NCBI GenBank assembly: GCA_964503265.1
Contig: CAZCYO010000004.1
Location: 162,157-226,156 of the forward strand
Origin: an uncultured Gammaproteobacteria bacterium
GTDB taxonomy: Bacteria > Patescibacteriota > Microgenomatia > Levybacterales > UBA12049
Reading direction: 5' to 3'
Length of the DNA: 64,000 nt
The position numbers and the translations under genes are program-made. The notes beneath the pieces are model-generated. The model was not told the DNA's origin. It saw only the letters and a program-made list of their open reading frames with translations, and did no database searches. Numbering within the stretch: the first letter of the stretch is position 1; each line of letters starts with the position of its first letter. Below, piece by piece: positions 1,348-58,048 of this stretch.

Positions 1348-2085
1348 CTACTGCACCGTAATCTTATCTTTCAATTTTTCATACGTAGCCTGACCGACTG
1401 CTTTTTTCGTAACGAGATCTTCTGGATGTGAATATGGTCGACTGGAAATAATTTTACTCGCAGTAACAGACCCTACACCTGGCAAGCTATCAAGTTCTTC
1501 TGTTGAGGCTGTATTGATGTTTATCAGACCAGACGACCTAGTGCTTGCTCCAAGTACAGTCTGCCCCGATTGAATCGGGGTCTGCTGACCAACTGAGGCT
1601 GTCAAATCTTCTCCAAGAAATGGAATATATATTTTCATACCATCTGAGAGTTTTTCAGCTAAGTTAAGACCTTTCGCTACTTTTTCATGGTCTACAGTCC
1701 TACTCAGTCCTCCAGATTTCGTTATCAAATCCTGTAATCGTGCAGTACTCTCAAGGTGATATACACCTGGTCGTACAACTGCTCCTTCGATATCAACGAC
1801 AATTTCAGAAATCTGAGTTGGAGAGATCGTACCAGTAGCTACAGGTTGGTCTGAGGTCTGAAACGTAACATCTTCAACAGATGGCTTATGCATAAACTGA
1901 ATCAAACCATACATAAAGACTACTAAACCAATCAGGAAGAGGCCAATCACTAAGCCATATTGTTTAAGAAGTAGTAGGGGCTGAACAGTTCCCTCTTCCA
2001 TAAAAAATACTGTTATACGAGATGCTGAAACAAATTCAGCAGCAACACTATATTTACCGTAGCAACAAACACCAGAGCTTTGCAA
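1348..2085 (-). CDS. comEA: ComEA-like competence DNA-binding protein with N-terminal membrane anchor and C-terminal helix-hairpin-helix
   Basis: C-terminus NINTASTEELDSLPGVGSVTASKII matches the ComEA HhH motif. A TM segment lies near the N-terminus. The true start may be the internal Met at about 2001. Confidence 0.6.
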   Translation of the reverse strand: MQSSGVCCYGKYSVAAEFVSASRITVFFMEEGTVQPLLLLKQYGLVIGLFLIGLVVFMYGLIQFMHKPSVEDVTFQTSDQPVATGTISPTQISEIVVDIEGAVVRPGVYHLESTARLQDLITKSGGLSRTVDHEKVAKGLNLAEKLSDGMKIYIPFLGEDLTASVGQQTPIQSGQTVLGASTRSSGLININTASTEELDSLPGVGSVTASKIISSRPYSHPEDLVTKKAVGQATYEKLKDKITVQ

Positions 2086-15350: not shown

Positions 15351-18300
15351 ATGAATTACATACAGCAATTTAAATCATATCTAGAGACTTCACAAAAGGC
15401 CTCTGTAGCTACAGTGAAGAATTATCTGAGTGATATCCGTAAATTTCAACACTGGCTAGAGACAAAGTCTGGTGAAGCATTTAATCCAACACTCGTTACC
15501 TCAGGGCGTATTGAGGAGTTTAAAGCTGAGATGAGAGAGTTATCTGTTAACTCATCTGATCGATACATCTCCTCCCTGCGAAAGTTTTATGCCTATCTGA
15601 TGACTGAAAACCTCGTGAGTAGTAATCCATTTGCAAGTGAAGATACAAAACAAAAAACTCTCACAAGTGATCCGTATCATCTCAAAGGGTTTAAGAATAG
15701 TTTGTATGAAGCAAACGCTTCTGAACCTACGATCAAAAACTATCTGGCTGATGTTAACCAATTTCTCATGTGGGGTGAGGAAGTTGCGATTAACAAGCAA
15801 TCACATATCGAAAGTGATAAAAACCTTCTTTCCAAGCTCAGCACAAAACTGATTGAAGAATATAAACAACGTCTTCATCACACAGCACATCTCTCACCTG
15901 TTTCTATCAACCGCAAACTCTCCTCTATTCGCAAATATCTAGCCTTTCTGCTAAACCAAGGCGTTGTTGATGCTGTCCCATTTGTGATAAATGCAAAACA
16001 GCACGAATTTTCACAAGAAGAAACTGCAGGGATAAGCGATAATCCCACAGAGGCATCGAGCTCGATAGAATCCAACATAAATGGAAATTCTATCCAGCCA
16101 CTCCAGAAGGAAAAGCTTGATCAAGAAGATCTTAACGTTAATCGCTCTCCTCTAAACCCCTCTAAGACATACTCTTCTTTTGGCCCACTTCGACTCTTCC
16201 AACGAATTGGCGGCCTTAGCAATTTCATATTTGATTTGCTAATGATCTTGCCTCTTGTGAAAATTATTGAGCATGCTCAATACCTATTCGTTAAATTGTC
16301 GGGAAAAGGTATTTTCACAGCAGCTGAAGCTAATATGCAATCAGCTAGTCTAGCTAGCAGAACGGCTGTTAAAGCGATAAATACAGTAGAAGAACTGATA
16401 TCTCAAAGAGCAAGTAGATCTCAAGTAAAAGGAATTCACCATTTCATTACCAGAGATAAAAAAACACTTGCTGATTTTGGATTCCGTGTTTCAAACCTCC
16501 CAAAAGAGATGTATGCGCCAATTTCTTTAACAAATCTTCCCTTTCATAAAAAAATGTGGCACCACATACGATTTACTCGCCCAAACTGGTATCGAAAATA
16601 TCATTCCTATGCGATTACTCACTACTTTCACTTCGCAATTTTAATGATCGTCGTAACAACACTTGGTGTTGGTGTGTATAATGGCGTCTTTAATAAAGCA
16701 CGGGAAACCAAAACGCTCGCTGCTCCCCCTACTGCGCCGCCGCGAATCCTCTCATTCCAAGGGAGACTGACTGATGCATCTGATAATCCAATAACCGCAA
16801 CTACCAATTTGCGGTTTACGATTTATAATGACCTCTCTGCATCAGGCTCAGCAAAACTTTGGGAAGAGGTCAAAACGACTACTCCAGACACTGATGGTAT
16901 TTTTAATACGTATCTGGGACAAGGAACTGTCATTCCTTCAACTGTTTTCACAGATAATGCATCACTTTACCTGGGTATCACAGTCGGCACGAACGATACT
17001 GAGCTGACACCTCGACAACAAATTGCAACTGTTGCATTCGCCGCAAACTCAGAAACACTCCAAGGTCTTCTTCCAAGTACTGGGGCCGGTGCGGGAACGA
17101 CTAATGTTGTGTTGGCGCTCGACTCATCGGGGAACCTTACGATTGGTGGTTCTGCTACCCCTACGTTTCAAGCAAGCGGCGGTCAGTTCACCCTTTCGGG
17201 TACTGTTCTTAAGCTAACGACAACCACTGGTTCAAACAGTAATATACAAATCACACCTGATGGCCTGGGTAAAATCGATATTCAGAAAGCAATGTATAAT
17301 GGCACTCTCTTCTCTCAATTGCCAACTGCGGCTGGAGCTGTCAACGTCGACGATCTCTTCGCAGTAAATGCGACATCTTCTGGTCAATCTGCATTCACGT
17401 TAAATCAGAACAGCACAGGACCATTAATTAGCGCTTCTGTCTCAGGAGTTGCCAAATTTACTGTCGATAATGCAGGAGCTGGAACATTTGCGAGTGATTT
17501 GGCTGTAAACGGAACAAGCATAACCACAAGCCAGAGTTCATTTAATTTATTAAACACAAACGCAGGAACACTTAACTTCGCTGGAGCATCGACAACCCTG
17601 ACGATTGGCGGGACAACTGGCACACTCGCGCTAAGGAACCCCGCTATTACACTTGGAGGTGGTTCAGCTACAACGATTCAAACGGCAAGTAGCCAAACCT
17701 TAACAATTGGAGGAAGCACAACCGGAGATATCATCGTTGGCCCACAGAACGGTGCTGCAGGCGGAACGCTTCGCCCTTCGACAAATAATGCAGTTGATTT
17801 AGGTACTGCTTCATTTGCCTATCGAAATCTCTATGTAAATAACATTATTGGCGCCTCAACTGGAGTCAATGGCTATTGGCAAAGAAATGCAAATGCTATC
17901 TCCCCTGCTAATATAACTGATGATGTACTGATCGGCGCAATTGCAACGAGTTCAGCTAAAATCCGTCTCGGAGGGACAACAAATGCAGACTCTTTCTTCA
18001 ATACAGGAGGAAATGTAGGGATTGGTACCACAACGATTGGATCAAAACTGACTATAGATGCCGGTGCTCTCCGCTTTACTGGTACAGGAGCATTCGGTAC
18101 GGGTACGGATGCTGGCGTTGTGGGAACCGGTGGTATTTCGGGAAGCCTTCAGTTCATTACGGCTGGTAATACGGCTGGCACAATTACAAATGCTGGTAAC
18201 CTCGGTATTGGTACGACCATAGTCAACTCGAAACTCCAAGTATATGGAACAACGAGTGGTAATGCGCTGGCTATGTTCGACCAACGAACGCTTAATGCTG

Positions 18301-21300
18301 ATGTATTAACAGCATCAGCATCTGGCACTTCGCTTTTTACTGTACGTTATAACGGCAATATAGGAATTGGCACATCTATCCCAGCAAGTATGCTTGATTT
18401 ACGTGGCACCACTACTGGTAATGCGCTTGTTTCTTTTGTACAAAATACAACGAATGCAGACATACTTACAGCTTCAGCAGGCGCAACAACCAAGTTGACA
18501 CTCAGACAAAACGGAAATCTTGGGATTGGCACCTCTCTCCCAGCTAGTCTTCTAGATATTAGAGGTACCACCACTGGTAATGCACTCGCCACACTCGTAC
18601 AGAACACAAGCGCAGATATCTTTACCGCTTCAGCTGGTGCTACAACACGATTTGTCATCCAAAATGCTGGCAACGTCGGTATTGGAACTAGTCGCCCAGC
18701 GCAACTCCTTGATGTTCAAGGTGGCGCTGGAATTGTCGCTCAATTCTCAGGAAGAGTGGTTGGAGCTAACGCTGCTGCTTCTAATGAATTTATCACTCTC
18801 TCTCAGCTTAACTCTTCAAATTACTGGCAACTAAATAGTGGGAGTATCTCTCCCTTCTCTAATACGCTTGATATTTTAGCTGGAGGAACTGCAACCGATA
18901 GTGCCAAATTTGCGGTATTAAATATGATAGGCTCTGGTACGCCAACGGCGTCTGTCTCAGCACAAAATGCCGGTGGACAGGCTCTCGTCTTAGCTGGGGA
19001 TGGTTCGATTCAATCCGTCAGAAAGAATACTCTAGTTATTGGAGGATCGACGACGGGAAATATAGACCTTGGTGCTGATGCAAATGCTCGACTCGTAACT
19101 CTGGGTAATACGACCGGAACAAGCTCACTAACACTTAACTCAGGCACGGGAAATATAGGTATCGGAACCAGCATTGCAAAAACCATTACAATTGGAAATG
19201 TCACTGGTGCGACAGCGCTCGCACTAAACGCTGGCACAGGTGGAATCGCACTTGCGTCAACATCAACAGGAGACATCACACTTGCCTCATCAGATACACT
19301 TCTTCTTGATGCGGCAGGAGTACTCGAGCTTAACTCTTCAGGCGGAGTTATTTCAATCGGCAATGATGCAGTAGCACAAAACATAAATCTGGGGACAGGT
19401 GCAGCGGCTCGAACGATTACCTTGGGAAATGTCACTGGTGCAACTGCAGTAAATGTTAACTCTGGTACAGGAGGAATAGCGCTTGCTTCTACGAGTACAG
19501 GAGATATAACCGCAACTTCATCAGACACACTTCTTCTCGACGCTGCAGGAGTTCTTGAACTCAATTCGTCAGGTGGAGTTATCTCGATTGGTAACGATGC
19601 TGTGGCCCAGAACATTAACCTAGGCACTGGTGCAGCGGCTCGAACGATTACTATCGGGAATGTTACTGGTGCAACCGCAGTAAATCTAAACGGTGGTACA
19701 GGTGGCATCTCGCTTGCCTCGACAACAACAGGCGACATTACACTCCTCTCTTCAGACCAGCTTCTCCTTCGATCAGCCAAAGCCGCAGGAGCGACGACAA
19801 CAGAAGCAATTCAACTCGCATCGACTGCAGATTTAGGAGCAACTGATGAGCTTCTTCAGATCAGCGATAGCGCGGGTACGTTCTTCACTGTCATGGGAAA
19901 TGGAAGTATCGGTGTTGGAACAACCACCCCCCTTGCCACACTTGACCTTCGAGGCAATTTAGGCACTACTCCATTTGCTTCTATCTCTGGTCAGAGTTCA
20001 TTTGCCGGCCTCATCGTAGATAACACTGGGGTTGGAGATCTCTTTACTGCGTCGAAGTCTGGTGCGACAAAGTTCACTATTAAGAATACTGGAAATGTCG
20101 GGATTGGGACTTCTCAACCAGCCCAACTCTTTGATGTTCAAGGTGGTGCAGGTATCGTCGCTCAATTCTCTGGAAGAGTTGTGGGTGCTAATGCTAGCGC
20201 TTCAAACGAGTTCGTTACTCTCTCACAGTTGAACGCGACTAACTATTGGCAGCTTAATAGTGGGACAATTGAACCATTTAGTAATTCACTTGATTTACTA
20301 GTTGGTGGCACTGCTACTGCTTCAGCGAAATTTGCTTTTATTAATAACATCGGATCAGGAGCTCCAACAGCGTCTATATCAGGTAATCTCGCAATTGCTG
20401 TTCCAACTGGTGCTAATCCTGCAACCACCTATTCTGCATTTAATGGTGGAACGGTAAACTTTAGAACGAGCGTCGGTGGGGACGCTGGAGCAACATCTCG
20501 ATTATTCATCGCAAATAATGGGAACGTCGGTATTAATACGACAACCCCTGTATATAAACATGAAGTCGACGGCACATTCTATGCTGGAGGGGCAAATGCA
20601 GGCATCGTCATTAGTGGACAGACCATCTTAGGAGGCACATCAGCATTTGGTTCAGTTGTCGACCATAATCTCGTTATCAATGCGAACAGTCTGGCTGGAA
20701 CACTTGCTCTTCAAGCTGCGAGCACAACTGAAATTTTCTTAGATGGAAATACTGGAAACGTCGGACTCGCTGGAGTAACAGCCCCAAATAACTTCCCTAT
20801 CGAAAGTGGAGGAAGTATCGGCCCAACAACTACTAATACCTATGACCTCGGCTCTTCATCACTCCAGTGGCGCAATGTTTATGGTCAGAACTTTTATCAA
20901 AACGGAACACTCGTTAATTTAACTAACTACTGGCAGCGAGCCCTAGGTGTCATCGCGCCATCAAATATAACTGATGATCTTGTTCTCGGTGGTATAGCTA
21001 CATCATCAGCAAAGGTTAGACTTGGAGGAACCACAAACGCAAATTCATTCTTTAATACTGGGGGCAGTCTCAGTATTGGCACCACTACCCCACTTGCCAC
21101 ACTTGATGTCAGGGGGAATCTCGCTACGACGCCTACAGCATCCTTCTCTGGCTCATCTACATTTGCTGGACTACTCGTTGATAACAACGGCACTGGGGAC
21201 CTCTTTACTGCTTCTAAATCTGGTGCGACGAAATTCACTATCTTAAATAACGGGAATATTAAAGCTGCTAATTATACAACCAATGGCGGGATTCTCTACA

Positions 21301-24300
21301 CGGACGCAACAGGTGTATTTAATCAGTCTGCTGCAGGCTCACCGGGACAATGCTTGGCATCTGCCGGTGGGGGTGCTCCAACGTGGAGTAGCTGTGGAGG
21401 AACTAACTATTGGAATCAGGTTAGTGGCATTGGTGTTAGTACTGGTGGTATTACCTACGTTGGCAATACCACGACTGATTTACTTATCGGTGGTACAGCC
21501 ACGACTTCAGCGAAATTTGCCTTCATCAATGTGCTAACTGGCAATCCAACACTTCGAGTATACAGCTCAAACAGCTCGCAATACATCCAAATGAATCATG
21601 ATGGCACAAACGGTAATATCACTGCATCAACTGGAACGATCCAAATTGGAACTGGTGGAGGCACACTATATGTTGAAACAGATATTATTAATGATACGAC
21701 GAGTAATAACGGCTATGTACAGGTATCAGATAAGTTTAAAGTAAATGGTACTGAGTCAGCCGGAAATGCACTGGTCGTTCTCAATAACGCAGGAGCTGGA
21801 GATCTCTTTACCGCGTCAGCTTCAGGTATCCCAAAATTCACTATTCGCACCGATGGCACTGCATCATCTGCTGGAAATCTTACCTTTACAACGGCTGCAA
21901 GTATCCAGACCACATCCGCTCAGAGCTTAACAATCGGTGGAAATACAACTGGAAGTATCATTCTTAACCCAAGTAATGCAGTCGCAGGAGGTGCTGTTCT
22001 CCCAGCAGTAACGAACGTTACCGATCTAGGCACATCAGCACTGCAGTTTAGAAATATTTATGGTCAGAACCTTTATAGTAACGGTGCATTGCTCTCTAAC
22101 TATTGGCAGAGAAATAGTAACGCACTTGCACCACTTAACATTACCGATGATATTTTACTTGGTGCGATAGCTACATCATCTGCGAAAATTAGACTTGGAG
22201 GAACAACGAATGCAGACTCCTACTTTAATACTGGTGGGAATGTGGGAATCGGAAGCACAACTCCTGGAGCAAAGCTTGATGTAGCGTTTGGAACAGTTAG
22301 TACAACAGCATTCAAAAGTATCTCGAACGTCGGCACAATTGCAACAACAGGCGTTTCTAACACGGGGTATGGTATCTATAACAGTATTACAAATACACCG
22401 ACAACTAACGCAAATACCGCATACGGCTTGTACAATTTAGTAACAGATAGTGCCTCTACAGGTAATACTGCCTATGGTGTCTTTAGCCAAGTAGACAGCA
22501 CGCAAAATATAAGTAAAAACCAATATTCAGGTTACTTCACTAACTCGAATACTTCTACGGTTGGAGGGAATATTTTTGGAGTATCTGGTGTTGGTCATGC
22601 AGCAGGAAACCTCGCTTCTGGAACATTTACTATTAAAGGAGGAGATTTTGCAGGTCTAGGAGTTGGGACAAGCACAGGTGGTACACGAAATGTCTATGGA
22701 CTAGATATTCGAGCAAGCACATCTAACGGAAATGGTTCTACAGATACAGTCTACGGCATTAAAGTAACTGGTGGCGGCACACTTACAACAGGAACATTAG
22801 CCACATACGGATTATACATAGCAAATGGAACGATGAATACTACGGGAACAACTACCAATACCGGACTATATGTAGAATCAATAACTGGAGCAGATACCAA
22901 TTACGCAGCGATCTTCGCTGGTGGGAACATCGGTATCGGAACTACTGCTCCACTGACCACGCTCGATGTTCGTGGTCAAACTGCTACCACTCCTATCGCC
23001 TCTTTCTCAGGCACGACGAACTGGGCGGGGCTGCTCGTTGATAATAATAATGCGAACGGGGATCTTTTTACTGCGTCAAGATCGGGTTCAACAAAATTTA
23101 CACTTAATGGATTTGGTGATCAGACGGCTGGCCAAACAGTGCTCGATGGTACAACCACAGCTAACGGAGCTGGTACGAACTCAACCACACTGATCTTAAC
23201 GAGTGCTGCGAGTTTTGATATCGGTAATTACGTTATGGTTTCCTCCACCAACTGTGTGACGGGTGTTAACATCTGTTACGCAAAAATCACCAACAAAGTG
23301 AGCAATACTCTCACTATCTCCCCTGCTATTTCCTGGGCTACGTCTTCTGTCGTCTCAGAACTACACATCCCAGAAATTGGCGGAACTGACCTGGCTCAAA
23401 CCTCAAAATTCCGCTATGGCCGCGGCTACTTCATAGACGGTATCGTGACAGGAAACGGCTCAACCTACTACTCAGATAAAAGGATTACGTTAACTGAAGG
23501 CGATCTTGGAATCGTGGGTGGAAACGTCGGTATCGGGACAGCGACACCGTCTGCACGACTGGCGATCAGACAGGATACCGCAGGAGACCTCCTCTCGATC
23601 AGAGATGGAAATAGTGGCAATGCATTCCAGATCGCCAGTGGTAGTGCGATCGTCTCCAAAGCCACCGGCTTTACAAAAGTTCTTTCCTGTGTGGGCGCTT
23701 CCTGTTCATCAAGTGATACTGGTACGTTCACAGATAGCACCGCTGAAGCATCGACATCAGCTGGAGTACTTCCATCAGCTCTCCTTACAGCTGCGGTAAC
23801 CACAGGAAGCTTCTATGTCGGACTTGATAAACCATTCTCAAGTGTCTACTTTAATATCAGTACTCCAGGCACGAATGTCTCTCTCGTTCGCCAGTACTGG
23901 AACGGCTCTGCATGGACAGCTATGCCAGCCAACACAGACAACACGGAGAGCCTCAAATTTAGTGGCGCAGTCTCATTCCCGTTCGTTCCAGCTACCTGGG
24001 CTCCAACTACCGTTAACGGAACCACCGGTCTCTACTGGATCAAATTCACGACGACGAGTGCTCCAGGCGTCGCACCAAACGTCTTTTCAGTCTCACCAAG
24101 TACCGGAAGCAGATTTACGCTGTATGCACAGAATGGAGATACAACCCCAGCTCTCACTGCGTCTGACTCAGGGTATATCGGGATTAATACAACCAATCCG
24201 ACCGATCGACTAGCAGTAAATGGAAATATCCAAGCATCCATTTTTAGGGACTTAGAAAACCCTGCATATTATATCGATCCGGCAGCTACAGGAAACTCAC

Positions 24301-27300
24301 TTATAGTTAATGGGAATGTCGGTATTGGTACAACTACTGCACAATCAAAGCTTGAAGTATACGGCTCGACACCTGTTGTCATAAATAGGAATACTTCATC
24401 AACTGGTTATGCTAGTTTTAGAGCATATAATGATCAAAATAGCAGTGCGCGATCCCTGGAGATTGATTATTCAGGTAGTGCCTATGCAAGCTCCCTTCTG
24501 ACAAGTGGCGTTACAGGAGAAGCAGCGTCCATTACCACCACTGGCGCCTTCCCGCTCATGTTTGGAACGACTAATACAGCAAGAATGACAATTTTAAGTG
24601 GTGGAAATGTCGGGATAGGAACGACTACTGCACCAGCCCTACTTACTGTTGGGGGTAATATCGGTTTGACTGGTGCAACATCAAATACTATTTTTTATGG
24701 AACTACTGGTGTCGCTGCGCCAGGAGCAGGAAGTGCTGGACAAAAAATTCAGCTTTATGGTACAGCTGGGACTATAAGCTCTACAGATTACGCATTAGGC
24801 ATTGAATCAAATAATCTATGGTTTAACACGGGCGGAACAGGATTCAAGTGGTATGCCTCATCTTCTCTAGTAGGTACACTCAGTAGTGCGGGACTCTTAA
24901 CATTAGCATCAGATATAAATATTCAAGGTCAAGACCTCCAGTTTAACGGGACAGTCCGCATGTCTGATTCTGTATCGTCTTCCTATACAGCTATCTCGCC
25001 ACAGAGTAATACGTTAATTGTCTATAATGGCTCTGCTGATCAAACATTTAGAGTTTATAATAGTGCTGGAAGTCACAACATAAGCCTCGCCTATTCTAGT
25101 ACTAATTATGGAGAACTCGCGACAACAAACCATTTAATCCTGACAGCTGGTAGTGGGAATATAGGAGTCGGAACAACAGCTCCTACAAGAAAAATTTCTG
25201 CATGGACTTCACTTACTGGTGGGTCCCCTTACTCCATGATAAATTATGCAGGTAGCGATGATGCAAACGAGGGAGTTCTACTTATGGGAATTAAACATAC
25301 CACAACAACAAATACTCGATTTATCAAATTCTTCAAAGGTATTAGCAATACCAGTGATAGCTATGCTGGAGCTACTGGTATAGGAAATATTCATGCAAAT
25401 AATACAAACGTTGTGTTCGATACAACTGGAACTGCTGACTTAGGAGAGTATATGTATATGGGAGAATCTGTTGAGGCTGGTGATATTATCTCTCAAACAT
25501 CTACGAATGGAATGAAAGCGACCACAAATAGCAATATTATGGGTGTGATCTCGCGAACTACTAGCTTTATGGGAAGTAGTGGTATCGCTAATGAACCAAA
25601 TACAGATATCGTTGGGTACGTTGGAAAGATTCTTACAAAAGTGTCAACAGTAAACGGCCCAATTCGTAATGGCGATGTCATCACAGCAAGTGTTATTCCA
25701 GGTGTTGGACAAAAAGCGACGAAGGCTGGACAAGTAGTTGGTAAAGCATTAGAAGATTTTGACCCCAATAATAACCCAGATGCATTCTCCTGTCCGGCTG
25801 GAACAGACTCAAACGTAAAATGCGGTAAAATTCTCTTATATGTAAATGCTTCTTGGTATGACCCAGACGTTTACATCACCGATACAGGTAATTTAAATAT
25901 TCAGACAGACGCAGGTGGTAACTTCGTAGCCTTTAATGCTGGAGATGCAGTCTCACGAATTGGTAGTTTTGCTTCAGCAGTTATCGCAAATCTTCAAGTA
26001 GGCGCGATCGATGCTCAGAAGATAACGACACAATCGTTCGCACTTGGCACAGAGAATATGACCGTAGCAGGTCAAAGTCTTAAGAATTATATTCTCTCAG
26101 TAGTTACTCAGGCAAATCTCGGTGGTGGACCTGGAAATAATCTTCCTGAGCTCACCGTAGGTAATCTAAAAACGAACCTCATCTCCCCACTCGCATCAGA
26201 ATCTGCAGTTGTTATCAGTGGTCGAGTCTTTATCGCAGGGAATCCTCTAAGTAACCAAGCTTCACTTGAAGTAACAGGAGATGCATCTATTTCAGGCACA
26301 CTTCGAGTTAAAAAAATCATCGCAGATGATATCGAGGGATTATCTGCGAAATTCGCAACACTCTCTGCCACAACTATCATTAACAACTACAATATAGCTT
26401 CAGATTCCGGTCAAGTCGTGATCCCGTCAAACGGGACCGGAATGACAAATAATTCAGCTTCAGGTTCAGGCCAGATTGAGCCTGCGTATCAGAACGGGAT
26501 TCCGACGCTTCTCTCTGGAAGTATCCAGACGAATTATGCAAATATTGCTTCCCTATCTGGCCAATTCGCCCAGACGAATAATCTCCAGGCAGAATTTGGT
26601 CAGTTTAACCAGGGACTCATGAGCTTGGGTCCGACTTCCCTCTCAGACACATCAGTCATAGGACAGTTATCAGTTGGCGGGAACATGATCCTCGCTGATA
26701 ATACGATTAATGTTCTCGGAGCAGATCTTCAGATCCAGCCACTTCGCCAAGGAGGCGTATCATTTGAAGGCGGACTTGTCGCGATCAATACAGATGGAGA
26801 CTTAACTGTAGGCGGAAGTGCAGTATTTAATCGAGATGTGACGATCAAAGGAGTACTCGCAACGAATATCATCTCCCCTGTTCCTGGTAGTAATTTAACG
26901 ATACGACTTGGAACAGATGTCTCAGATCCAACAAAAGATGGAATCTTTGAGATACAGAATGCTTCTGGATCAGGAGTACTCGCAGTAGATCAAAAAGGCA
27001 ACCTGACAGCGAGTGGTTCTGGCTTCTTTAAAGAGGTGGCTAGTAATCTCTTTAATATCGTTCGAGGTGCCCAGGCAGACACCTCAGTCACAGAAACGAC
27101 TGCTTCTGCTTCTGCGGGAACTGCAGTAATTAAAAGATACTATACAGAGCGAACTATTTTCTCACCATATGTATCTGAAAAATCCCTGATCTATGTCACA
27201 GCTACATCAGATACTCAGGGCCAGACTCCATATATCGCTCGCCAAACAGCTGAAGACCCAGGAACAGGAACGAAGGGATCTTTCACCATCCAAATACCTA

Positions 27301-27347
27301 CTACCGTATCACAGGATATCAAAATTAACTGGTGGATCGTGAATTAA
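15351..27347 (+). CDS. giant (3998 aa) membrane-anchored surface fibre protein; N-terminal cytoplasmic region has two tandem tyrosine-recombinase core-binding (integrase N-terminal SAM-like) domains, then one TM helix, then a huge repeat-rich extracellular region
   Basis: Residues 1-95 and about 110-210 fit the XerD/integrase N-terminal pattern (F..YL....S..T...Y..D...F..WL, LR.FY.YL, ..NPF). TM helix ITHYFHFAILMIVVTTLGVGVY at about residue 425. Many GNVGIGTTTP..LDV.G and NYWQR..ITDD..LG.IATSSAK.RLGGTTNA repeats. No catalytic recombinase domain. Confidence 0.8.
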   Translation: MNYIQQFKSYLETSQKASVATVKNYLSDIRKFQHWLETKSGEAFNPTLVTSGRIEEFKAEMRELSVNSSDRYISSLRKFYAYLMTENLVSSNPFASEDTKQKTLTSDPYHLKGFKNSLYEANASEPTIKNYLADVNQFLMWGEEVAINKQSHIESDKNLLSKLSTKLIEEYKQRLHHTAHLSPVSINRKLSSIRKYLAFLLNQGVVDAVPFVINAKQHEFSQEETAGISDNPTEASSSIESNINGNSIQPLQKEKLDQEDLNVNRSPLNPSKTYSSFGPLRLFQRIGGLSNFIFDLLMILPLVKIIEHAQYLFVKLSGKGIFTAAEANMQSASLASRTAVKAINTVEELISQRASRSQVKGIHHFITRDKKTLADFGFRVSNLPKEMYAPISLTNLPFHKKMWHHIRFTRPNWYRKYHSYAITHYFHFAILMIVVTTLGVGVYNGVFNKARETKTLAAPPTAPPRILSFQGRLTDASDNPITATTNLRFTIYNDLSASGSAKLWEEVKTTTPDTDGIFNTYLGQGTVIPSTVFTDNASLYLGITVGTNDTELTPRQQIATVAFAANSETLQGLLPSTGAGAGTTNVVLALDSSGNLTIGGSATPTFQASGGQFTLSGTVLKLTTTTGSNSNIQITPDGLGKIDIQKAMYNGTLFSQLPTAAGAVNVDDLFAVNATSSGQSAFTLNQNSTGPLISASVSGVAKFTVDNAGAGTFASDLAVNGTSITTSQSSFNLLNTNAGTLNFAGASTTLTIGGTTGTLALRNPAITLGGGSATTIQTASSQTLTIGGSTTGDIIVGPQNGAAGGTLRPSTNNAVDLGTASFAYRNLYVNNIIGASTGVNGYWQRNANAISPANITDDVLIGAIATSSAKIRLGGTTNADSFFNTGGNVGIGTTTIGSKLTIDAGALRFTGTGAFGTGTDAGVVGTGGISGSLQFITAGNTAGTITNAGNLGIGTTIVNSKLQVYGTTSGNALAMFDQRTLNADVLTASASGTSLFTVRYNGNIGIGTSIPASMLDLRGTTTGNALVSFVQNTTNADILTASAGATTKLTLRQNGNLGIGTSLPASLLDIRGTTTGNALATLVQNTSADIFTASAGATTRFVIQNAGNVGIGTSRPAQLLDVQGGAGIVAQFSGRVVGANAAASNEFITLSQLNSSNYWQLNSGSISPFSNTLDILAGGTATDSAKFAVLNMIGSGTPTASVSAQNAGGQALVLAGDGSIQSVRKNTLVIGGSTTGNIDLGADANARLVTLGNTTGTSSLTLNSGTGNIGIGTSIAKTITIGNVTGATALALNAGTGGIALASTSTGDITLASSDTLLLDAAGVLELNSSGGVISIGNDAVAQNINLGTGAAARTITLGNVTGATAVNVNSGTGGIALASTSTGDITATSSDTLLLDAAGVLELNSSGGVISIGNDAVAQNINLGTGAAARTITIGNVTGATAVNLNGGTGGISLASTTTGDITLLSSDQLLLRSAKAAGATTTEAIQLASTADLGATDELLQISDSAGTFFTVMGNGSIGVGTTTPLATLDLRGNLGTTPFASISGQSSFAGLIVDNTGVGDLFTASKSGATKFTIKNTGNVGIGTSQPAQLFDVQGGAGIVAQFSGRVVGANASASNEFVTLSQLNATNYWQLNSGTIEPFSNSLDLLVGGTATASAKFAFINNIGSGAPTASISGNLAIAVPTGANPATTYSAFNGGTVNFRTSVGGDAGATSRLFIANNGNVGINTTTPVYKHEVDGTFYAGGANAGIVISGQTILGGTSAFGSVVDHNLVINANSLAGTLALQAASTTEIFLDGNTGNVGLAGVTAPNNFPIESGGSIGPTTTNTYDLGSSSLQWRNVYGQNFYQNGTLVNLTNYWQRALGVIAPSNITDDLVLGGIATSSAKVRLGGTTNANSFFNTGGSLSIGTTTPLATLDVRGNLATTPTASFSGSSTFAGLLVDNNGTGDLFTASKSGATKFTILNNGNIKAANYTTNGGILYTDATGVFNQSAAGSPGQCLASAGGGAPTWSSCGGTNYWNQVSGIGVSTGGITYVGNTTTDLLIGGTATTSAKFAFINVLTGNPTLRVYSSNSSQYIQMNHDGTNGNITASTGTIQIGTGGGTLYVETDIINDTTSNNGYVQVSDKFKVNGTESAGNALVVLNNAGAGDLFTASASGIPKFTIRTDGTASSAGNLTFTTAASIQTTSAQSLTIGGNTTGSIILNPSNAVAGGAVLPAVTNVTDLGTSALQFRNIYGQNLYSNGALLSNYWQRNSNALAPLNITDDILLGAIATSSAKIRLGGTTNADSYFNTGGNVGIGSTTPGAKLDVAFGTVSTTAFKSISNVGTIATTGVSNTGYGIYNSITNTPTTNANTAYGLYNLVTDSASTGNTAYGVFSQVDSTQNISKNQYSGYFTNSNTSTVGGNIFGVSGVGHAAGNLASGTFTIKGGDFAGLGVGTSTGGTRNVYGLDIRASTSNGNGSTDTVYGIKVTGGGTLTTGTLATYGLYIANGTMNTTGTTTNTGLYVESITGADTNYAAIFAGGNIGIGTTAPLTTLDVRGQTATTPIASFSGTTNWAGLLVDNNNANGDLFTASRSGSTKFTLNGFGDQTAGQTVLDGTTTANGAGTNSTTLILTSAASFDIGNYVMVSSTNCVTGVNICYAKITNKVSNTLTISPAISWATSSVVSELHIPEIGGTDLAQTSKFRYGRGYFIDGIVTGNGSTYYSDKRITLTEGDLGIVGGNVGIGTATPSARLAIRQDTAGDLLSIRDGNSGNAFQIASGSAIVSKATGFTKVLSCVGASCSSSDTGTFTDSTAEASTSAGVLPSALLTAAVTTGSFYVGLDKPFSSVYFNISTPGTNVSLVRQYWNGSAWTAMPANTDNTESLKFSGAVSFPFVPATWAPTTVNGTTGLYWIKFTTTSAPGVAPNVFSVSPSTGSRFTLYAQNGDTTPALTASDSGYIGINTTNPTDRLAVNGNIQASIFRDLENPAYYIDPAATGNSLIVNGNVGIGTTTAQSKLEVYGSTPVVINRNTSSTGYASFRAYNDQNSSARSLEIDYSGSAYASSLLTSGVTGEAASITTTGAFPLMFGTTNTARMTILSGGNVGIGTTTAPALLTVGGNIGLTGATSNTIFYGTTGVAAPGAGSAGQKIQLYGTAGTISSTDYALGIESNNLWFNTGGTGFKWYASSSLVGTLSSAGLLTLASDINIQGQDLQFNGTVRMSDSVSSSYTAISPQSNTLIVYNGSADQTFRVYNSAGSHNISLAYSSTNYGELATTNHLILTAGSGNIGVGTTAPTRKISAWTSLTGGSPYSMINYAGSDDANEGVLLMGIKHTTTTNTRFIKFFKGISNTSDSYAGATGIGNIHANNTNVVFDTTGTADLGEYMYMGESVEAGDIISQTSTNGMKATTNSNIMGVISRTTSFMGSSGIANEPNTDIVGYVGKILTKVSTVNGPIRNGDVITASVIPGVGQKATKAGQVVGKALEDFDPNNNPDAFSCPAGTDSNVKCGKILLYVNASWYDPDVYITDTGNLNIQTDAGGNFVAFNAGDAVSRIGSFASAVIANLQVGAIDAQKITTQSFALGTENMTVAGQSLKNYILSVVTQANLGGGPGNNLPELTVGNLKTNLISPLASESAVVISGRVFIAGNPLSNQASLEVTGDASISGTLRVKKIIADDIEGLSAKFATLSATTIINNYNIASDSGQVVIPSNGTGMTNNSASGSGQIEPAYQNGIPTLLSGSIQTNYANIASLSGQFAQTNNLQAEFGQFNQGLMSLGPTSLSDTSVIGQLSVGGNMILADNTINVLGADLQIQPLRQGGVSFEGGLVAINTDGDLTVGGSAVFNRDVTIKGVLATNIISPVPGSNLTIRLGTDVSDPTKDGIFEIQNASGSGVLAVDQKGNLTASGSGFFKEVASNLFNIVRGAQADTSVTETTASASAGTAVIKRYYTERTIFSPYVSEKSLIYVTATSDTQGQTPYIARQTAEDPGTGTKGSFTIQIPTTVSQDIKINWWIVN
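19190..19885 (+). repeat. three tandem 231-nt (77-aa) coding repeats inside giant gene 1
   Basis: TITIGNVTGATA..NAGTGGIALASTSTGDIT..SSDTLLLDAAGVLELNSSGGVISIGNDAVAQNINLGTGAAAR occurs three times with few substitutions. Confidence 0.8.
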
Positions 27348-43499: not shown

Positions 43500-43529
43500 T
43501 TGACAAGGTCCTATAGGTATTGATATACT
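43500..43529 (+). promoter_or_regulatory. conserved promoter module cTTGACAAggtcctataggtattgaTATACT (-35/18 nt/-10)
   Basis: One of at least seven copies of the same about 32-nt module (43500, 47628, 48903, 50132, 56620, 57520, weaker 57821). Confidence 0.6.
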
Positions 43530-43554
43530 CACACCTCTAGCGAGGTAATTTCAA

Positions 43555-44508: not shown

Positions 44509-45021
44509 ATGATCTGGCGATTTTCACTGGTAGCATTACTACTAGCGGCACTTTCAGGGTGTGGTAACCCTACCCCGACAGCACAACCGCCGACTGTAGC
44601 AATCACACCGACTATCCTCGCGTCGTCGCCAATCCCGACATTCACTCCGACTCGAGTGCTGCCATCCCAGATCCCCACGTTCACACCGACTGTGATGAGG
44701 ATCAGCGAGCCTTACTGCGTCGAAAACGTCCCGAATACAACCCAGTATGAGGCGACAGCTCAGGAAGTTAAGATCTCCATTACCATCAGCAACTGCGGCG
44801 TAAATCCTTGGGAAAACACACGAGCGATTCGTGTCAGTGGCACAACAGTCTTTCCCACCCCTCTGGATACTATTCCGTTCACAAAATCTGGAGAACAACG
44901 CCGGTTAACACTGCGAGGAAAGAAACCCAAAGTTGGCTTCTATGAGGCCACTTACACTATCTCTGGTCCGTTGGGGACTTCTCAAAGCTTCTTCACCGTG
45001 AACTTTGAGATTAAACCCTAG
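44509..45021 (+). CDS. small lipoprotein with Pro/Thr-rich linker
   Basis: AAGGAGG 7 nt upstream of the ATG at 44509. Lipobox LLAALSGC. Noticeably higher G+C than neighbours. Confidence 0.5.
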   Translation: MIWRFSLVALLLAALSGCGNPTPTAQPPTVAITPTILASSPIPTFTPTRVLPSQIPTFTPTVMRISEPYCVENVPNTTQYEATAQEVKISITISNCGVNPWENTRAIRVSGTTVFPTPLDTIPFTKSGEQRRLTLRGKKPKVGFYEATYTISGPLGTSQSFFTVNFEIKP

Positions 45022-45084
45022 GTTCAAATGAACTGATGTAGGAGGAGATAGAAAGTATGCTAAGGCATGCTTCTGAGAGCAGGG

Positions 45085-47373: not shown

Positions 47374-47627
47374 ACAATATAATTTACAATTCCTAATTTC
47401 TAATTTCTAATCAATACAAGACACAGTAAACAGCTACAGGTAAATCATTTGAGTTTGATTAAAAATTTTACATGTTAAATTATAAATTCTGTCTTTATTC
47501 TACTCTACTCCCCATTATTTGACAAACGTTTGGCCAATTGAAAACAACCAACCAGGTAATCCCCCTCTTGCATTTTTGATTTATATAGTATAAACATAAT
47601 ATACATTACCAGGTTTATCTGATGAGC

Positions 47628-47655
47628 TTGACAAAGTCCTATAATATGCTATACT
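47628..47655 (+). promoter_or_regulatory. conserved promoter module copy (TTGACA-16-TATACT) driving the leader that contains element A and the SLH gene
   Basis: gcTTGACAaagtcctataatatgcTATACT. Confidence 0.55.
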
Positions 47656-47710
47656 CTGCTGACGTACGCTAAATCATTCTCTCCTCGTGAGGGATTTTTT
47701 TATCGCTACT

Positions 47711-47825
47711 GCACATTAACCCTCCTACGCTTAAAGCTACGGAAGGGTGAACATGCTAAAGTACCATTTTGCTAATAAGAAAGGGCTTGCCCTCTCGAAG
47801 CTTTAGCGAAGTGGGGCACATTAAC
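47711..47825 (+). repeat. element A of the gcacattRac-bounded repeat family (about 96-nt body between 10-nt direct repeats), in the 5' leader of the SLH gene
   Basis: gcacattaac at 47711..47720 and again at 47816..47825. Body is ccctcctacgc-[gcttaaagc hairpin]-tacggaagggt...gggcttgccctctcgaagctttagcgaagtgggg. Confidence 0.6.
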
Positions 47826-48034
47826 AAGAGAGAGTGTATTTTAGAAAAGAATAGTTTTCTAGGTACTACCTGCAGTGTTTCGAATCCACTTCGAGATAGC
47901 GCTGGTGGTGCCTGGAAAGGAGCTAGCAAAGAAAGGAGGAAACATTAGATACGACAAGTCGTCGCATCTTATTCCCTGCTTTCCACGCGCCACTAACTAA
48001 CGTCGTTACTGTATAAATTCGGAGGCGCCAAATT

Positions 48035-48667: not shown

Positions 48668-48678
48668 GTTCACGGCTA

Positions 48679-48722
48679 GTCCGCCACATAGTGGGGCCTA
48701 CCGGCTCTACTGTGTGGCGGAC
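48679..48722 (+). terminator. long terminator-like hairpin after the SLH gene
   Basis: gtccgccacatagtgg / ctactgtgtggcggac forms a roughly 15-bp stem 12 nt after the stop codon, followed by a C/T-rich tract. Confidence 0.5.
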
Positions 48723-48902
48723 AACGCCACTTTCTTCTCTAAATACAGATTTTTAATACCTTTCTATGAACGAGTAATAATTGCATTACTCCCTTCAAAC
48801 AAAAACTAAATAAAATCGAGTTACTCCTCTCTCTTGTTATAATTTTCCTCATTTGACATCACTTCTCCTCTTTTCTATGCTTATTCTAGGTAGTATTTTC
48901 TT

Positions 48903-48932
48903 CTTGACAAAGTCTTATAGGAGATACTATAC
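48903..48932 (+). promoter_or_regulatory. conserved promoter module copy (TTGACA-18-TATACT)
   Basis: tcTTGACAaagtcttataggagatacTATACT. Confidence 0.55.
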
Positions 48933-49024
48933 TGCCGCTACGTTTTATTATCACTGAATATCTTCATTGCTTGATATATCCGTGACATAAAACAGCATCG
49001 TTACCACCAGCTCAAGCTAAATAA

Positions 49025-49093
49025 GGTTTACCCCTAACGTAGCTTTAGCCCCGATTGAATCGGGGTTAGCGAAGTGGGGCTCTTTAACAAGGC
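49025..49093 (+). repeat. element B, a 3'-half copy of the same family carrying an inserted 16-nt palindrome
   Basis: ggtttacccctaacgtagctttagc[cccgattgaatcggggttagc]gaagtggggctctttaacaaggc. Compare the 3' half of C. Confidence 0.5.
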
Positions 49094-50131: not shown

Positions 50132-50160
50132 TTGACAAAACTATAGGACTGTGATATGCT
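50132..50160 (+). promoter_or_regulatory. conserved promoter module copy (TTGACA-17-TATGCT)
   Basis: cTTGACAaaactataggactgtgaTATGCT. Confidence 0.45.
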
Positions 50161-51483: not shown

Positions 51484-52100
51484 CCCTCAGGAGGCAACAT
51501 GCTATTTCTTGCACTGACGACAGACCCAGAGTATATCCCGATTGATTCGGGAGAAACTCTCGTGTACGCCCTTGGTGTCCTCTTGGTTTGCTGGCTCTTT
51601 TACGAGATCGGCCACTACCGCCGTTAGCATACGGTGGGATGAAGGCTCGTTCTGGTTAACATATCCGTTGCCTTCATCTCTTATTAGTACAATACTGTAA
51701 CGATAAGAGATGAAGTTTTTATGAGAAATAGCTATGATTTCTTCTTCAATTGCGAAGAATGGAAGACTAGTTATTTCATTGCACATTTACAAGGCAACCT
51801 TATACGTATAACTAACTCTCTTCAGATACAAAAAGAGGGCTCATATATGCCGCTTTTACTGTTCTCGGGAAACCAGCAGTACTCCAAAAGCGGCAGGTAT
51901 GAGTCCTCAGAAATGGTCTGGGGAAAAGAAGAAAGGATACCTTCGTGTTCGTGCCGTTTGACCTGATTTCATCGAACTCAGGCACGGATTCTCAAGTGTA
52001 TCTCCTCGTGCTCGCTGCACTAGGAGCATATCTGACAATCGAAGACATCATTCGGAATTGGCGCAAGTAGCGCTAAGAAGACATCTCTACAAGGAGGCAC

Positions 52101-57585: not shown

Positions 57586-57673
57586 GTGTCATCCTCGACC
57601 TGATCGAGGATCTATTAGATAACTCCTTATAAAGGAAATCTCTAATAGATTCCCGTTTTCACGGGAATGACAA
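57586..57673 (+). mobile_element. MITE-like element with GTCAT termini and three hairpins (non-autonomous relative of the GIY-YIG element)
   Basis: tgtcatcctcgacctgatcgaggatc...ctattaga-[loop]-tctaatag...gattcccgttttcacgggaatgaca. Terminal inverted repeats of about 12 nt. Confidence 0.6.
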
Positions 57674-58048
57674 ATTATGTTTACGACCAGAGATAAGACA
57701 AGACTCATCCTCTTCTCTTTTCTCCGAGCGTAAGCCCCGATTAAATCGGGGTAAGCCCGGAATACGAATAGATCGTTCTTTTCTCAATTGCGAGATCAGA
57801 ATATATATATCCGTAGTTCTTTGACAAGGTACGCAATTTTTTAGAAACGCTAATAACTAGTTTGAGAAAGCTTAGAGTTAGATACTGCACGCTCTTCTGA
57901 GGGCGTGCGATACCTAACTCTAAGGTGGTTCGGATAGTGAAATTCATCAGAATTTCTTTTTCTATCCAGCCACCTCTCAAACAACTCTCACGGAGCAGTA
58001 ATGCTTCGTGTCGTCGGATATATTCTTCTCACATCTGAAGGAGGTGCT

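Follow-up and report, generated by a model that had tools for sequence, protein, structure and literature searches.

A 17-bp palindrome with a 4-nt target duplication as a probable ultra-small insertion element in CPR bacteria

A short palindrome flanked by a direct repeat lies in frame inside a comEA gene, and the same palindrome recurs in non-coding DNA of the same genome. We asked whether so short a sequence is an insertion, what its exact unit is, and what could have moved it. The window, that is, the whole stretch of DNA that was analysed, is 64,000 nucleotides long. We conclude that the palindrome is most probably an ultra-small non-autonomous element, a perfect 17-bp palindrome that enters at a 4-nt staggered break, duplicating 4 bases and adding exactly 21 bp.

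Architecture of the unit and its copies in the window

The unit consists of the palindrome CCCCGATT-N-AATCGGGG, in which two 8-nt arms enclose one base (8+1+8), and of a 4-nt target-site duplication (TSD), giving 21 nt per insert in all three copies of the window (Table 1). A preliminary description of this DNA had reported the three copies as a 16-nt palindrome with a 5-nt duplication. All three copies were found in place, and the motif, with up to two mismatches, occurred at 4 loci of the window (7 matches, both strands) against an expectation of 0.06, a number reached by no shuffle. The idea of an insertion with duplication held, but the sizes had to be corrected to 17 and 4 because the fifth base of the supposed repeat, a C, already belongs to the palindrome, of which it is the initial base, and the TSDs of other copies are not followed by C.

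A blind scan of the window for hairpins (stem of at least 6, loop of at most 5) with a flanking direct repeat of at least 4 nt returned four candidates, three of them members of the palindrome family, whereas Markov shuffles returned 0-1. No copy had a match in Rfam. The direct repeat actually extends to 6 nt at the comEA copy (GCAGAC on the coding strand) and to 8 nt at the copy at 57731, so that the exact phase of insertion cannot be fixed from those two sites alone.

The hairpin form of the element is clear, and paired changes are seen in the variants GTCCGATTCAATCGGAC (L177) and TCCCGA..TCGGGA (51536), although in few cases only. The second of these belongs to a degenerate relative, TCCCGATTGATTCGGGA, that had been placed at 51537..51553. 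Its sequence was confirmed and its coordinates were shifted by one base. Its outermost pair is altered in both arms (C..G to T..A), an inner pair no longer matches, and no flanking duplication was present at this position; its membership in the family is uncertain. A few hairpins of other sequence (L134, L138, L177) have the same 8+1+8 stem and 4-nt repeat, which suggests that the architecture, beyond this one sequence, is what gets mobilised. The orientation of the element is irrelevant and its centre base is free. Copy 3 lies downstream of a GTCAT-type hairpin doublet, at a distance of 60 nt, and its flanks resemble those of copy 2 (family D19).

Table 1. Positions of the palindrome copies and of the features discussed with them, numbered from the first base of the window
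Feature	Position	Strand	Structure	Remark or basis
comEA (SLBB + HHH_3), host of copy 1	1348..2001	-	conserved start ATG at 2001 (217 aa)	
Copy 1, in comEA	1560..1584		TSD TCTG 1560-1563; CCCCGATTGAATCGGGG 1564-1580; TSD TCTG 1581-1584	ortholog DNA and protein alignments
Copy 2, in non-coding repeat	49045..49069		TSD TTAG 49045-49048; palindrome 49049-49065; TSD TTAG 49066-49069	
Copy 3, intergenic, centre-base variant	57731..57755		TSD TAAG; CCCCGATTAAATCGGGG 57735-57751; TSD TAAG	
Possible decayed relative	51536..51552		TCCCGATTGATTCGGGA	membership not established
Uninterrupted paralogues of the copy 2 repeat (empty-site references)	47780..47835; 52909-52964; 53896-53951; 60078-60133	+ (first)		alignment
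GTCAT-type hairpin doublet	57587..57672		TGTCAT-YC-stem-loop-stem-GR-ATC ... inverted copy ... AATGACA	
Further GTCAT-type doublets	59440-59523; 60198-60257; 62942-63293			

Filled and empty sites

On the coding (minus) strand of comEA, copy 1 reads CAG-ACC-CCG-ATT-CAA-TCG-GGG-CAG. As had been proposed, it adds seven residues between the SLBB region and the helix-hairpin-helix domain (HHH_3), which can be written as TPIQSGQ or QTPIQSG. A start at the TTG at 2085 (245 aa) was rejected in favour of the conserved ATG.

ComEA orthologs from GTDB species genomes were only 30-48% identical and hypervariable in the linker, and their alignment left the insert undecided. Closer orthologs were obtained from a search of 5.8 billion proteins. 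The ortholog alignment suggested as a check in the preliminary description then bore out the insertion: two proteins (P0005, P0007) lack exactly the 7 residues, and the others (window, L081, L084, L085, L086) have them together with the palindromic DNA. The palindrome stands at the same codon in ComEA orthologs of 64-72% identity, and the nucleotide identity of the five filled genes is only 62-74%. Two independent assemblies (L082, L083) carry an empty comEA that is 97.9% nucleotide-identical to the filled gene of L081 and differs from it by exactly 21 nt, with GGACAA|CAAACAGTG at the empty site and GGACAACAAA[CCCCGATTAAATCGGGGCAAA]CAGTG at the filled one. In comEA the codons of the palindrome exceed synonymous sites elsewhere in conservation: three of the five are identical across all five orthologs, against 14.5% gene-wide.

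According to these alignments, a clade of orthologs has the comEA insert in common; it is not private to one genome, and is either old or recurrent. Because the copy is common to the whole clade, the element may have been immobile at this site for a long time. The empty alleles may predate the insertion or may have arisen by slippage, and neither case can be told apart from seamless excision; no movement was directly observed.

Copy 2 interrupts one of five paralogues of a non-coding repeat, and the other four have a clean 21-nt gap at this point (alignment A2); taking the insert out restores the uninterrupted repeat, as had been noted. No strain variation was found at copy 2: the two contigs encoding the neighbouring SLH protein (L230, L231) match the window at 100% identity, and what looked like a 38-nt difference proved to be a run of N in a scaffold.

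That the palindrome is inserted DNA is shown by the occurrence of both filled and empty alleles and by the interruption of one repeat paralogue. The insertion interpretation of the preliminary description is supported.

Target sites and possible modes of movement

In public metagenomes, a flanking repeat of at least 4 nt accompanied 32 of the 129 occurrences of the 17-mer among the matches listed, with about 0.5 expected, and about 30 of the 129 when self-complementary flanks were dropped. Flanking duplications, which had been taken as the mark of insertion, are thus carried by independent copies elsewhere far above chance. About 60% of the occurrences among the matches listed have no TSD; such 17-mers stand in other repeat contexts, are terminators or are due to chance. 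By contrast, in viral contigs the 17-mer occurred 22 times, mostly as a terminator hairpin, and once with a TSD. The element is multi-copy in one genome and is present across many CPR-type metagenome contigs, and the hosts identified are Microgenomates-type CPR bacteria.

The target logo of the 32 independent sites (matches listed) had T at 84%, Y at 85%, R at 85% and A at 84%, and no signal beyond these 4 nt. TTGA/TCAA made up 16 of these 32 sites against 0.41 expected (P = 3e-22), and TTAA made up 2. The target is a two-fold symmetric T-Y-R-A, most often TTGA/TCAA, and the duplication is 4 nt; the TCTG, TTAG and TAAG of the window fit this rule only loosely.

We infer that a trans-acting enzyme of two-fold symmetry, presumably dimeric and encoded elsewhere, would cut with a 4-nt stagger and join the element ends. 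The formal signature would be nearest to DDE cut-and-paste transposition of the piggyBac/IS1380 type, given a TTAA-related 4-bp TSD, CCC termini and an allele that looks like the product of seamless excision. The target of piggyBac is TTAA, rarely TTAG, TAAA, CTAA or TCAA (PMC10813416). As in that group, the duplication is a symmetric tetranucleotide of 4 bp bounded by T and A, and the inverted termini start with 5'-CCC, as CCCCGATT does (motif in PMC10813416). Excision there is seamless and restores the target, with which the empty comEA allele is compatible. Unlike piggyBac targets, however, TTGA/TCAA dominates here among the matches listed. piggyBac itself is about 100 times longer than the 17-bp element, and even the Paramecium IESs excised by piggyBac have a minimum of 26 bp. 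On this comparison the likeness may point to a possible working mode; family membership is not shown.

No transposase, of that family or any other, was found among the ORFs searched, which represent only fragments of the genomes. Of the window ORFs 130 aa or longer, nearly all (two giant ORFs excluded) were searched with Pfam and gave no transposase, nuclease or recombinase candidate. For 150 ORFs from element-bearing contigs, the 25 commonest of 161 matched families included no transposase, only housekeeping families and others of non-transposase type. A crude motif screen of the ORFs for HUH/Y gave nothing. An intermediate in the form of a single-stranded hairpin (DNA or RNA) is just as conceivable, since a duplex of 17 bp is rigid and difficult to synapse; we know of no DDE transposase that synapses a duplex as short as this. 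Loss of copies would not even require an enzyme: slippage during replication, from one 4-6-nt direct repeat to the other across the hairpin, could remove them.

Alternatively, a longer MITE or IS with a 4-bp TSD and the termini CCCCGATT... might have collapsed at each site and left the 17-mer as a relic (its footprint, or the result of an internal deletion), in which case the long element and not the hairpin would be mobile. Cut-and-paste elements are known to collapse in this way, from TIR to TIR. The GTCAT-type doublets, possibly a related repeat family, are abundant in the region, and in 7 metagenome contigs (among the matches listed) the hairpin of GTCAT-type ends is exactly the 17-mer. 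This identity lends some substance to the earlier suggestion that the palindrome derives from GTCAT hairpins, but the derivation itself was not demonstrated: in the GTCAT ends the hairpin lies 7 nt inside the tip without a matching TSD, and no long element with CCCCGATT termini and a TSD was seen. A search of 1.5 Mb of DNA bearing the element for CCCGATT...AATCGGG pairs, spaced 25-4000 nt and flanked by matching 4-nt TSDs, turned up only pairs of separate solo copies, and neither the window nor 1.5 Mb of related loci yielded a parent IS with matching termini. More than 30 independent sites are exactly 8+1+8 nt, with no interior remnant. We consider an origin as a relic unlikely. Classical bacterial MITEs (Correia, Nezha, RUP) measure about 50-500 bp, contain an internal segment and can be traced to a parent IS. 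The element resembles them in its terminal inverted repeats (8 bp here), its TSD, its non-autonomous nature and its presence/absence polymorphism, but here the two 8-bp termini abut around one base, 17 bp in total.

A palindrome of 8+1+8 arrangement and 17 bp is also typical for the binding site of a dimer, and one could regard it as a functional site that arose by convergence or spread by recombination, whether as an operator of a dimeric DNA-binding protein, as a DNA-uptake signal, or as a terminator or RNA hairpin, the repeats being incidental. Several copies lie directly 5' of TTGACA, a -35-like hexamer, and in some contigs, viral ones among them, the 17-mer forms the stem of a terminator. 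The comEA palindrome is, moreover, conserved beyond the synonymous background. A functional site would not, however, account for exact but variable 4-nt repeats at about a quarter of the listed occurrences, where 0.4% are expected, for copies within coding sequence in all three frames (MurC, AtpG and L7/L12 included), or for the clean 21-nt filled/empty differences. We regard it as very unlikely that the palindrome arose or spread in this way, although a function gained after insertion is not excluded.

It is equally hard to maintain that the element is a single-strand hairpin element (Y1/HUH, of the IS200/IS605 or RAYT type), whose apparent duplication would combine a carried, fixed cleavage tetranucleotide with an identical target tetranucleotide. 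The element is essentially one hairpin, TTGA/TCAA flanks it on both sides at half of the sites among the matches listed, the neighbouring GTCAT doublets are REPIN-like, and excision in that family is seamless, as in IS608. Yet 12 different strand-symmetrised 4-mers occur over the 32 sites, always the same on both sides, and flanks that vary but always match fit a true duplication, whereas a fixed cleavage site should not produce them. The element leaves no space for guide sequences, and no Y1 transposase was found in the scanned window ORFs or by the ORF motif screen. The PATE derived from IS200/IS605 insert 3' of one fixed tetra- or pentanucleotide without duplication, in contrast to the 12 duplicated 4-mers here (matches listed). 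REP and REPIN sequences with their RAYT are extragenic and carry a conserved 5' tetranucleotide tag (GTAG/CGTC), without flanking target duplications (PMC3116915, PMC3733652). The element shares with them the form of short, GC-rich, multi-copy hairpins, and the GTCAT doublets of the window look like REPINs, but the element has no such tag, has variable TSDs and lies inside genes.

It is barely credible that TPIQSGQ is an ancestral ComEA linker under protein selection, with the nucleotide palindrome and the other matches coincidental, since the peptide does stand at the same position in five orthologs but exactly these 7 residues are missing in two others, the P, I and S codons are invariant despite near-saturated synonymous sites, the identical 17-mer with its own TSDs occurs in non-coding DNA of the same genome, and the 17-mer encodes three different peptides in other genes.

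Four further candidates were rejected. Capture by a type IIA topoisomerase would fit the 4-nt stagger, but the known cleavage preference of this enzyme, G-R-Y-C, does not fit T-Y-R-A. A GANTC methylation site exists only with C or G as the centre base, a DNA-uptake sequence leaves the TSDs unexplained, and P-nucleotide or fold-back repair would not be expected to give one constant sequence.

Other very short repeats and in-frame residence in genes

The element is among the smallest known insertion elements that leave a TSD, and to our knowledge hardly any mobile DNA shorter than about 50 bp has been documented. SDR1-8 of the Nostocaceae, reported by Elhai et al. in 2008, are said to be hairpin-forming, dispersed repeats of 21-27 nt with many copies, nested in repeats and mini-transposons. 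They were reportedly called 'perhaps the smallest known mobile elements', without an encoded enzyme and with an unknown mechanism, and we know of no enzyme proposed for these cyanobacterial repeats since 2008. The present element is similar in its 21-nt hairpin unit, in its abundance (3 intact copies in 64 kb, and many contigs) and in the nesting of copy 2 in a 5-copy repeat. It differs in its host, a Levybacteria-like CPR (Microgenomates) bacterium and not a heterocystous cyanobacterium, and is set apart by its perfect 17-bp palindrome, its clear 4-nt TSD, its T-Y-R-A target and its frequent in-frame residence in essential genes. For SDR5, citing papers describe a precise, site-specific insertion within HIP1 (PMC4390886, PMC5861425, PMC3116915). 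We found no description of the element for CPR in the literature.

The element could represent a distinct minimal class of transposable element, made up of nothing but inverted terminus (17 bp) and duplicating 4 nt at T-Y-R-A, resident in CPR, moved by an unidentified symmetric enzyme or through a hairpin intermediate, routinely inserting 7 residues into essential proteins and able to leave seamlessly. We put this forward tentatively, with doubt slightly outweighing conviction. If true, it would be the smallest mobile DNA that both generates a TSD and obeys a defined target rule, and reduced genomes would have in it a natural source of variation by peptide insertion; a cargo-free 17-bp element with seamless loss would set a lower bound for transposition and repair systems. 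The perfect palindrome, the fixed 4-nt duplication, the symmetric T-Y-R-A rule and the filled and empty alleles offer clean handles on the mechanism, and the wide but patchy distribution makes phylogenetic profiling for the responsible enzyme feasible.

Rickettsia palindromic elements (Ogata et al. 2000) are presented as selfish palindromic repeats that lie in frame in genes, essential ones included, without destroying them (PMC3184786). The element resembles them in its in-frame residence in protein genes. It differs in size and host (21 nt, in CPR), the Rickettsia elements, RPE-1 to RPE-8, being about 100-150 bp long and having no defining 4-nt TSD.

Genic insertions survive as 7-residue additions because 21 nt are 7 codons and two of the three frames are free of stops for most centre bases. 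Besides ComEA, in-frame copies were found in MurC, ATP synthase gamma (AtpG), L7/L12, a prepilin leader, ComEC and a 1486-aa surface protein. MurC, ATP synthase gamma, L7/L12 and ComEA of CPR bacteria tolerate these selfish 7-residue insertions, which bears on the annotation, alignments and phylogenies of CPR lineages and on how 'lineage-specific inserts' in CPR proteins are read. The MurC insert of L205 is missing from 120 homologues and from solved MurC structures. The coding copies give the peptides PI[Q/K]SG, PD[S/L]IG and PR[F/L]NRG.

The repeat unit and its insertions

All three copies of the repeat noted in the preliminary description were located: two are the 16-mer itself (1565-1580 and 49050-49065), and the third, at 57736-57751, is its one-base variant. 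We found that one extra base on the left turns each copy into a perfect 17-nt palindrome, CCCCGATT-N-AATCGGGG, abutted by identical 4-nt direct repeats (Table), so that each unit adds 21 nt. The layout proposed earlier, 16 nt with a 5-nt duplication, fits these three copies only because their fifth base, C, already belongs to the palindrome as its opening base; among other copies, the base after the right-hand repeat is A, G or T, and 17 + 4 fits all. The element pattern, allowing up to two mismatches, occurred at four loci in the window versus 0.06 expected from dinucleotide shuffles (none of 100 shuffles equalled this). The fourth locus, TCCCGATTGATTCGGGA, previously called a degenerate relative and placed one base off its actual position, has no flanking repeat and is possibly a decayed relative. 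We also scanned the window blindly for hairpins of any sequence with a stem of at least 6, a loop of at most 5 and direct repeats of 4 nt or more on either side. This gave four matches, three of which were the element family, versus 0-1 in Markov shuffles. In single-stranded DNA the unit forms a stem of 7-8 bp with a folding energy of -7.3 to -7.5 kcal/mol (z from about -4.3 to -5.2). A separate hairpin with a 6-bp stem and a 4-nt direct repeat (54676-54700) may be a chance occurrence or another hairpin of this architecture.

Copy 2 splits one of the five copies of a non-coding repeat (...CGAAGCTTTAGCGAAGTGGGGCACATTRACA...); when the five were aligned, the other four had a clean gap of 21 columns and a single TTAG. 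This composite family is bounded by GCACATTRAC motifs (...CCCTCCTACGC...GCTACGGAAGGG...GGGCTYGCCCCTCGAAGCTTTAGCGAAGTGGGGCACATTRACAAG) and had no Rfam match.

An exact-match scan of public metagenomes gave at least 129 occurrences of the 17-mer on at least 120 contigs. Direct repeats of 4 nt or more flanked 32 of the 129 occurrences listed versus about 0.5 expected, and about 30 of these 32, among the matches listed, survived removal of self-complementary flanks that merely extend the hairpin. In contrast, the 22 occurrences on viral contigs were mostly terminators of the form AAAAAA[hairpin]TTTTTT, and a target-site duplication (TSD) accompanied just one of them; the flanking repeat therefore belongs to a particular class of copies and not to the motif as such. 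Some element copies share identical longer flanks, as direct repeats within a contig (L199:4788 and 7792; L200:1122 and 1420) or as inverted repeats (L087:587 and 3490), which shows that the 17-mer also travels inside larger duplicated or inverted segments.

Locations of the element, related hairpins, repeats, host genes and neighbouring features (positions without a locus handle are those of the window; L-handles are fetched loci or contigs)
Feature	Location	Sequence or context
Element, copy 1 (comEA)	1564-1580	TCTG repeat
Element, copy 2	49049-49065	TTAG repeat
Element, copy 3	57735-57751	TAAG repeat
Fourth locus	51536-51552	
Hairpin, 6-bp stem	54676-54700	cgca-GTCACGAAATGCGTGAC-cgca
Composite non-coding repeat family	47709-47841, 49024-49099, 52823-52970, 53867-53957, 59992-60139	five copies within 13 kb
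GTCAT hairpin doublets	57587-57672, 59440-59523, 60198-60257, 62942-63293	
Other-sequence hairpin	L134:6969-6993	caaa-ATCGCGTCTGACGCGAT-caaa, 8+1+8 stem with 4-nt repeat
Other-sequence hairpin	L138:661-685	tcca-ACCGCGTCAAACGCGGT-tcca, 8+1+8 stem with 4-nt repeat
Other-sequence hairpin	L177:900-924	agcg-GTCCGATTCAATCGGAC-agcg, 8+1+8 stem with 4-nt repeat
Host gene, MurC	L205	
Host gene, ATP synthase gamma	L149	
Host gene, ribosomal protein L7/L12	L170	
Host prepilin leader	L150	insert just before G/FTLLE cleavage motif
Host gene, ComEC	L092	N-terminal region
Host gene, 1486-aa surface protein	L163	
Longest comEA ORF	1348-2085	TTG start, 245 aa
Sigma-70-like promoter blocks	43500-43532, 47628-47660, 48904-48936, 56620-56652	TTGACAAAGTC-TATA-N-TATACT
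VirD4/TrwB-like coupling ATPase	45085-47373	
Adjacent giant ORFs	15351-27347, 27352-37515	3998 aa, 3387 aa

Proposed gain and loss at comEA and residence in other genes

A ComEA search over 5.8 billion proteins returned a small clade, 62-72% identical to the ComEA of the window. In four of these proteins (P0002, P0003, P0004 and P0006) the corresponding position is occupied by QTPIQSG or QTPIKSG, and exactly those seven residues are missing from P0005 and P0007. At the DNA level the palindrome lies at the same comEA codon in the window and in loci L085, L086, L084 and L081, with gene identity of just 62-74%. Two independent assemblies of the gene for P0007 (L082 and L083), 97.9% identical to L081, read GGACAA/CAAACAGTG at the empty site, and the filled L081 reads GGACAACAAA[CCCCGATTAAATCGGGGCAAA]CAGTG. 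The orthologue comparison proposed in the preliminary description thus came out as predicted. Three independent lines of evidence (the interrupted repeat, the ComEA orthologues and the excess of TSDs in metagenomes) confirm the observation and support its proposed reading as an insertion, once its unit is taken as 17 + 4. The element probably is, or recently was, a mobile insertion element, although we have no direct evidence of current movement and no whole-genome census.

In a neighbour-joining tree of ComEA, the empty P0005 was sister to the rest of the clade and the filled P0006 was sister to the empty P0007. The most parsimonious history is a single gain and, later, one precise loss; repeated gains at this site are not excluded. 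The loss could reflect enzymatic seamless excision, or replication slippage between 4-6-nt direct repeats across the hairpin, a well-known deletion route that needs no enzyme. Across comEA, only 14.5% of degenerate codons for residues shared by all five filled orthologues are identical in all five. Of the five conserved palindrome codons (T, P, I, S, G), three do not vary and each of the other two departs in a single sequence. Of the three substitutions seen in the palindrome, two replace Watson-Crick pairing by G:T pairing on the coding strand. The palindrome therefore either arose later than the genes or has been maintained, through selection, re-insertion or conversion by other copies, and the data do not distinguish among these. 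In L084 (620-665, encoding P0002) an extra CAG codon directly follows the element, with two palindrome substitutions, one keeping a G:T pair on the coding strand, possibly a sign of local slippage or structure-preserving drift. The 245-aa comEA form, also present in public record P0122, was probably called too long, as every close homologue begins at an ATG 28 codons downstream (MEEG..., 217 aa).

The 21 nt correspond to seven codons. Read from the sequence, frame one of the palindrome never has a stop (P-R-F/L-N-R-G), frame two is open if the centre base is C or T (P-D-S/L-I-G) and frame three is open unless it is T (P-I-Q/K/E-S-G); all three peptides were found in long open frames (host genes include those in Table). 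In MurC the segment VDPDLIG aligned with a gap in solved MurC structures and was missing in all 120 closest homologues (57-65% identity; Daviesbacteria/Microgenomates where named), which have FKN-LP-VD-G instead. The element therefore sits in frame within essential, conserved genes in at least two Microgenomates lineages.

Target rule and related hairpins

Empty targets were rebuilt from 32 independent sites, with orthologous and duplicated sites counted once. The strand-symmetrised duplicated bases were T (84%), T/C (85%), A/G (85%) and A (84%), with no signal in the ten bases on either side. TTGA/TCAA accounted for 16 of the 32 sites versus 0.41 expected (P = 3e-22), and T-N-N-A for 22 (P = 9e-17). 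Four TTGA sites form the -35-like hexamer TTGACA, which the duplication restores downstream of the insert, so that a promoter would survive. All four centre bases were seen (A/T 21, G/C 11), and the orientation of the element cannot be defined. From the two-fold symmetric element and the symmetric target we infer a symmetric, dimeric enzyme making 4-nt staggered cuts.

The GTCAT doublets of the window have the form TGTCAT-YC-stem-loop-stem-GR-ATC ... (inverted) ... AATGACA, and from copy to copy their stems are altered on both sides (CCCG/CGGG, CTCG/CGAG, CCGG/CCGG). They look like REPINs, a likeness that is untested. In seven metagenome contigs the GTCAT-end hairpin is exactly the 17-mer, CTGG-ATT[17-mer]AAT-GACA, so the two families have a hairpin module and a host range in common. 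GTCAT-related ends were widespread in metagenome contigs, with no matching TSD evident. The earlier suggestion that the 16-mer may derive from this family is partly supported by the shared module; derivation was not demonstrated.

In all fetched DNA, 8+1+8 stems bounded by an exact 4-nt direct repeat occurred 45 times, versus 4 in shuffles, and 31 of the 45 matches belong to the query family. Three hairpins of other sequence (Table), two of which share the core CGCGTC-N-GACGCG, lie on contigs that also bear the CCCCGATT element; some of the remaining matches are AT-rich and probably chance. These small numbers hint that the substrate is an architecture and not one sequence.

Possible routes of mobilisation, precedents and genomic setting

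No candidate transposase, recombinase or nuclease was found in the window, and the 25 families listed from a bulk Pfam scan of 150 ORFs of element-bearing contigs were all housekeeping or other non-transposase families. Within the 1.5 Mb fetched, no longer element was found that combines CCCCGATT termini with a matching TSD, suggesting that the element is non-autonomous. Any particular enzymology remains doubtful. The closest formal likeness is to the DDE cut-and-paste transposons piggyBac and IS1380, which share the 4-bp duplication of a T..A-bounded symmetric tetranucleotide, CCC termini and a possible seamless excision; the piggyBac target is TTAA, with TTAG, TAAA, CTAA and TCAA occasional (PMC10813416). 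One argument against a conventional DDE mechanism is that the two ends of a rigid 17-bp duplex cannot reach phosphates 4 bp apart. An intermediate that is melted or forms a hairpin, of single-stranded DNA or of RNA, is equally possible, and an RNA intermediate has reportedly been suggested for cyanobacterial small dispersed repeats (SDRs). A Y1/HUH single-strand mechanism is disfavoured by the variable, always duplicated flanking tetranucleotide and by the lack of room for guide sequences.

The SDRs of Nostocaceae are the nearest precedent, although no sequence comparison was made; they are said to be 21-27 nt long, hairpin-forming, nested in other repeats and 'perhaps the smallest known mobile elements'. 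Rickettsia palindromic elements also reside in frame but exceed this element in length by a factor of five to seven, and REPs/REPINs, classical MITEs and IS200/IS605 derivatives each miss at least one defining feature. A full-text literature search found nothing relevant on palindromic repeats, MITEs or target-site duplication in CPR, Patescibacteria or Microgenomates. The element is best filed as an ultra-small palindromic mobile repeat, a little-known class to which the host group and an explicit target rule are new.

The window encodes LeuRS, ComEA, ComEC, Rho, giant surface proteins and a VirD4-like ATPase. Its nearest ComEA loci in GTDB species genomes are from Candidatus Levybacteria and other Microgenomates-type CPR MAGs (30-48% identity). 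Many MAG records titled 'uncultured Gammaproteobacteria' (some 'Clostridium'), including L001, L005 and L006, have ComEA closest to Levybacteria-type CPR, and these titles appear to be taxonomic errors. Over about 45000-64000 the G+C content climbs from about 0.41 to 0.48-0.52; this region, which carries the coupling ATPase, DUF11 and SLH proteins and many Pfam-less ORFs, is where all the small repeat families concentrate, and it is possibly a segment that was integrated or acquired horizontally. Each of the four near-consensus promoter blocks lies upstream of a DUF11 or SLH surface-type protein gene. The two giant ORFs contain many internal diverged repeats (families D1-D13) and are similar in style to the element-bearing 1486-aa protein.
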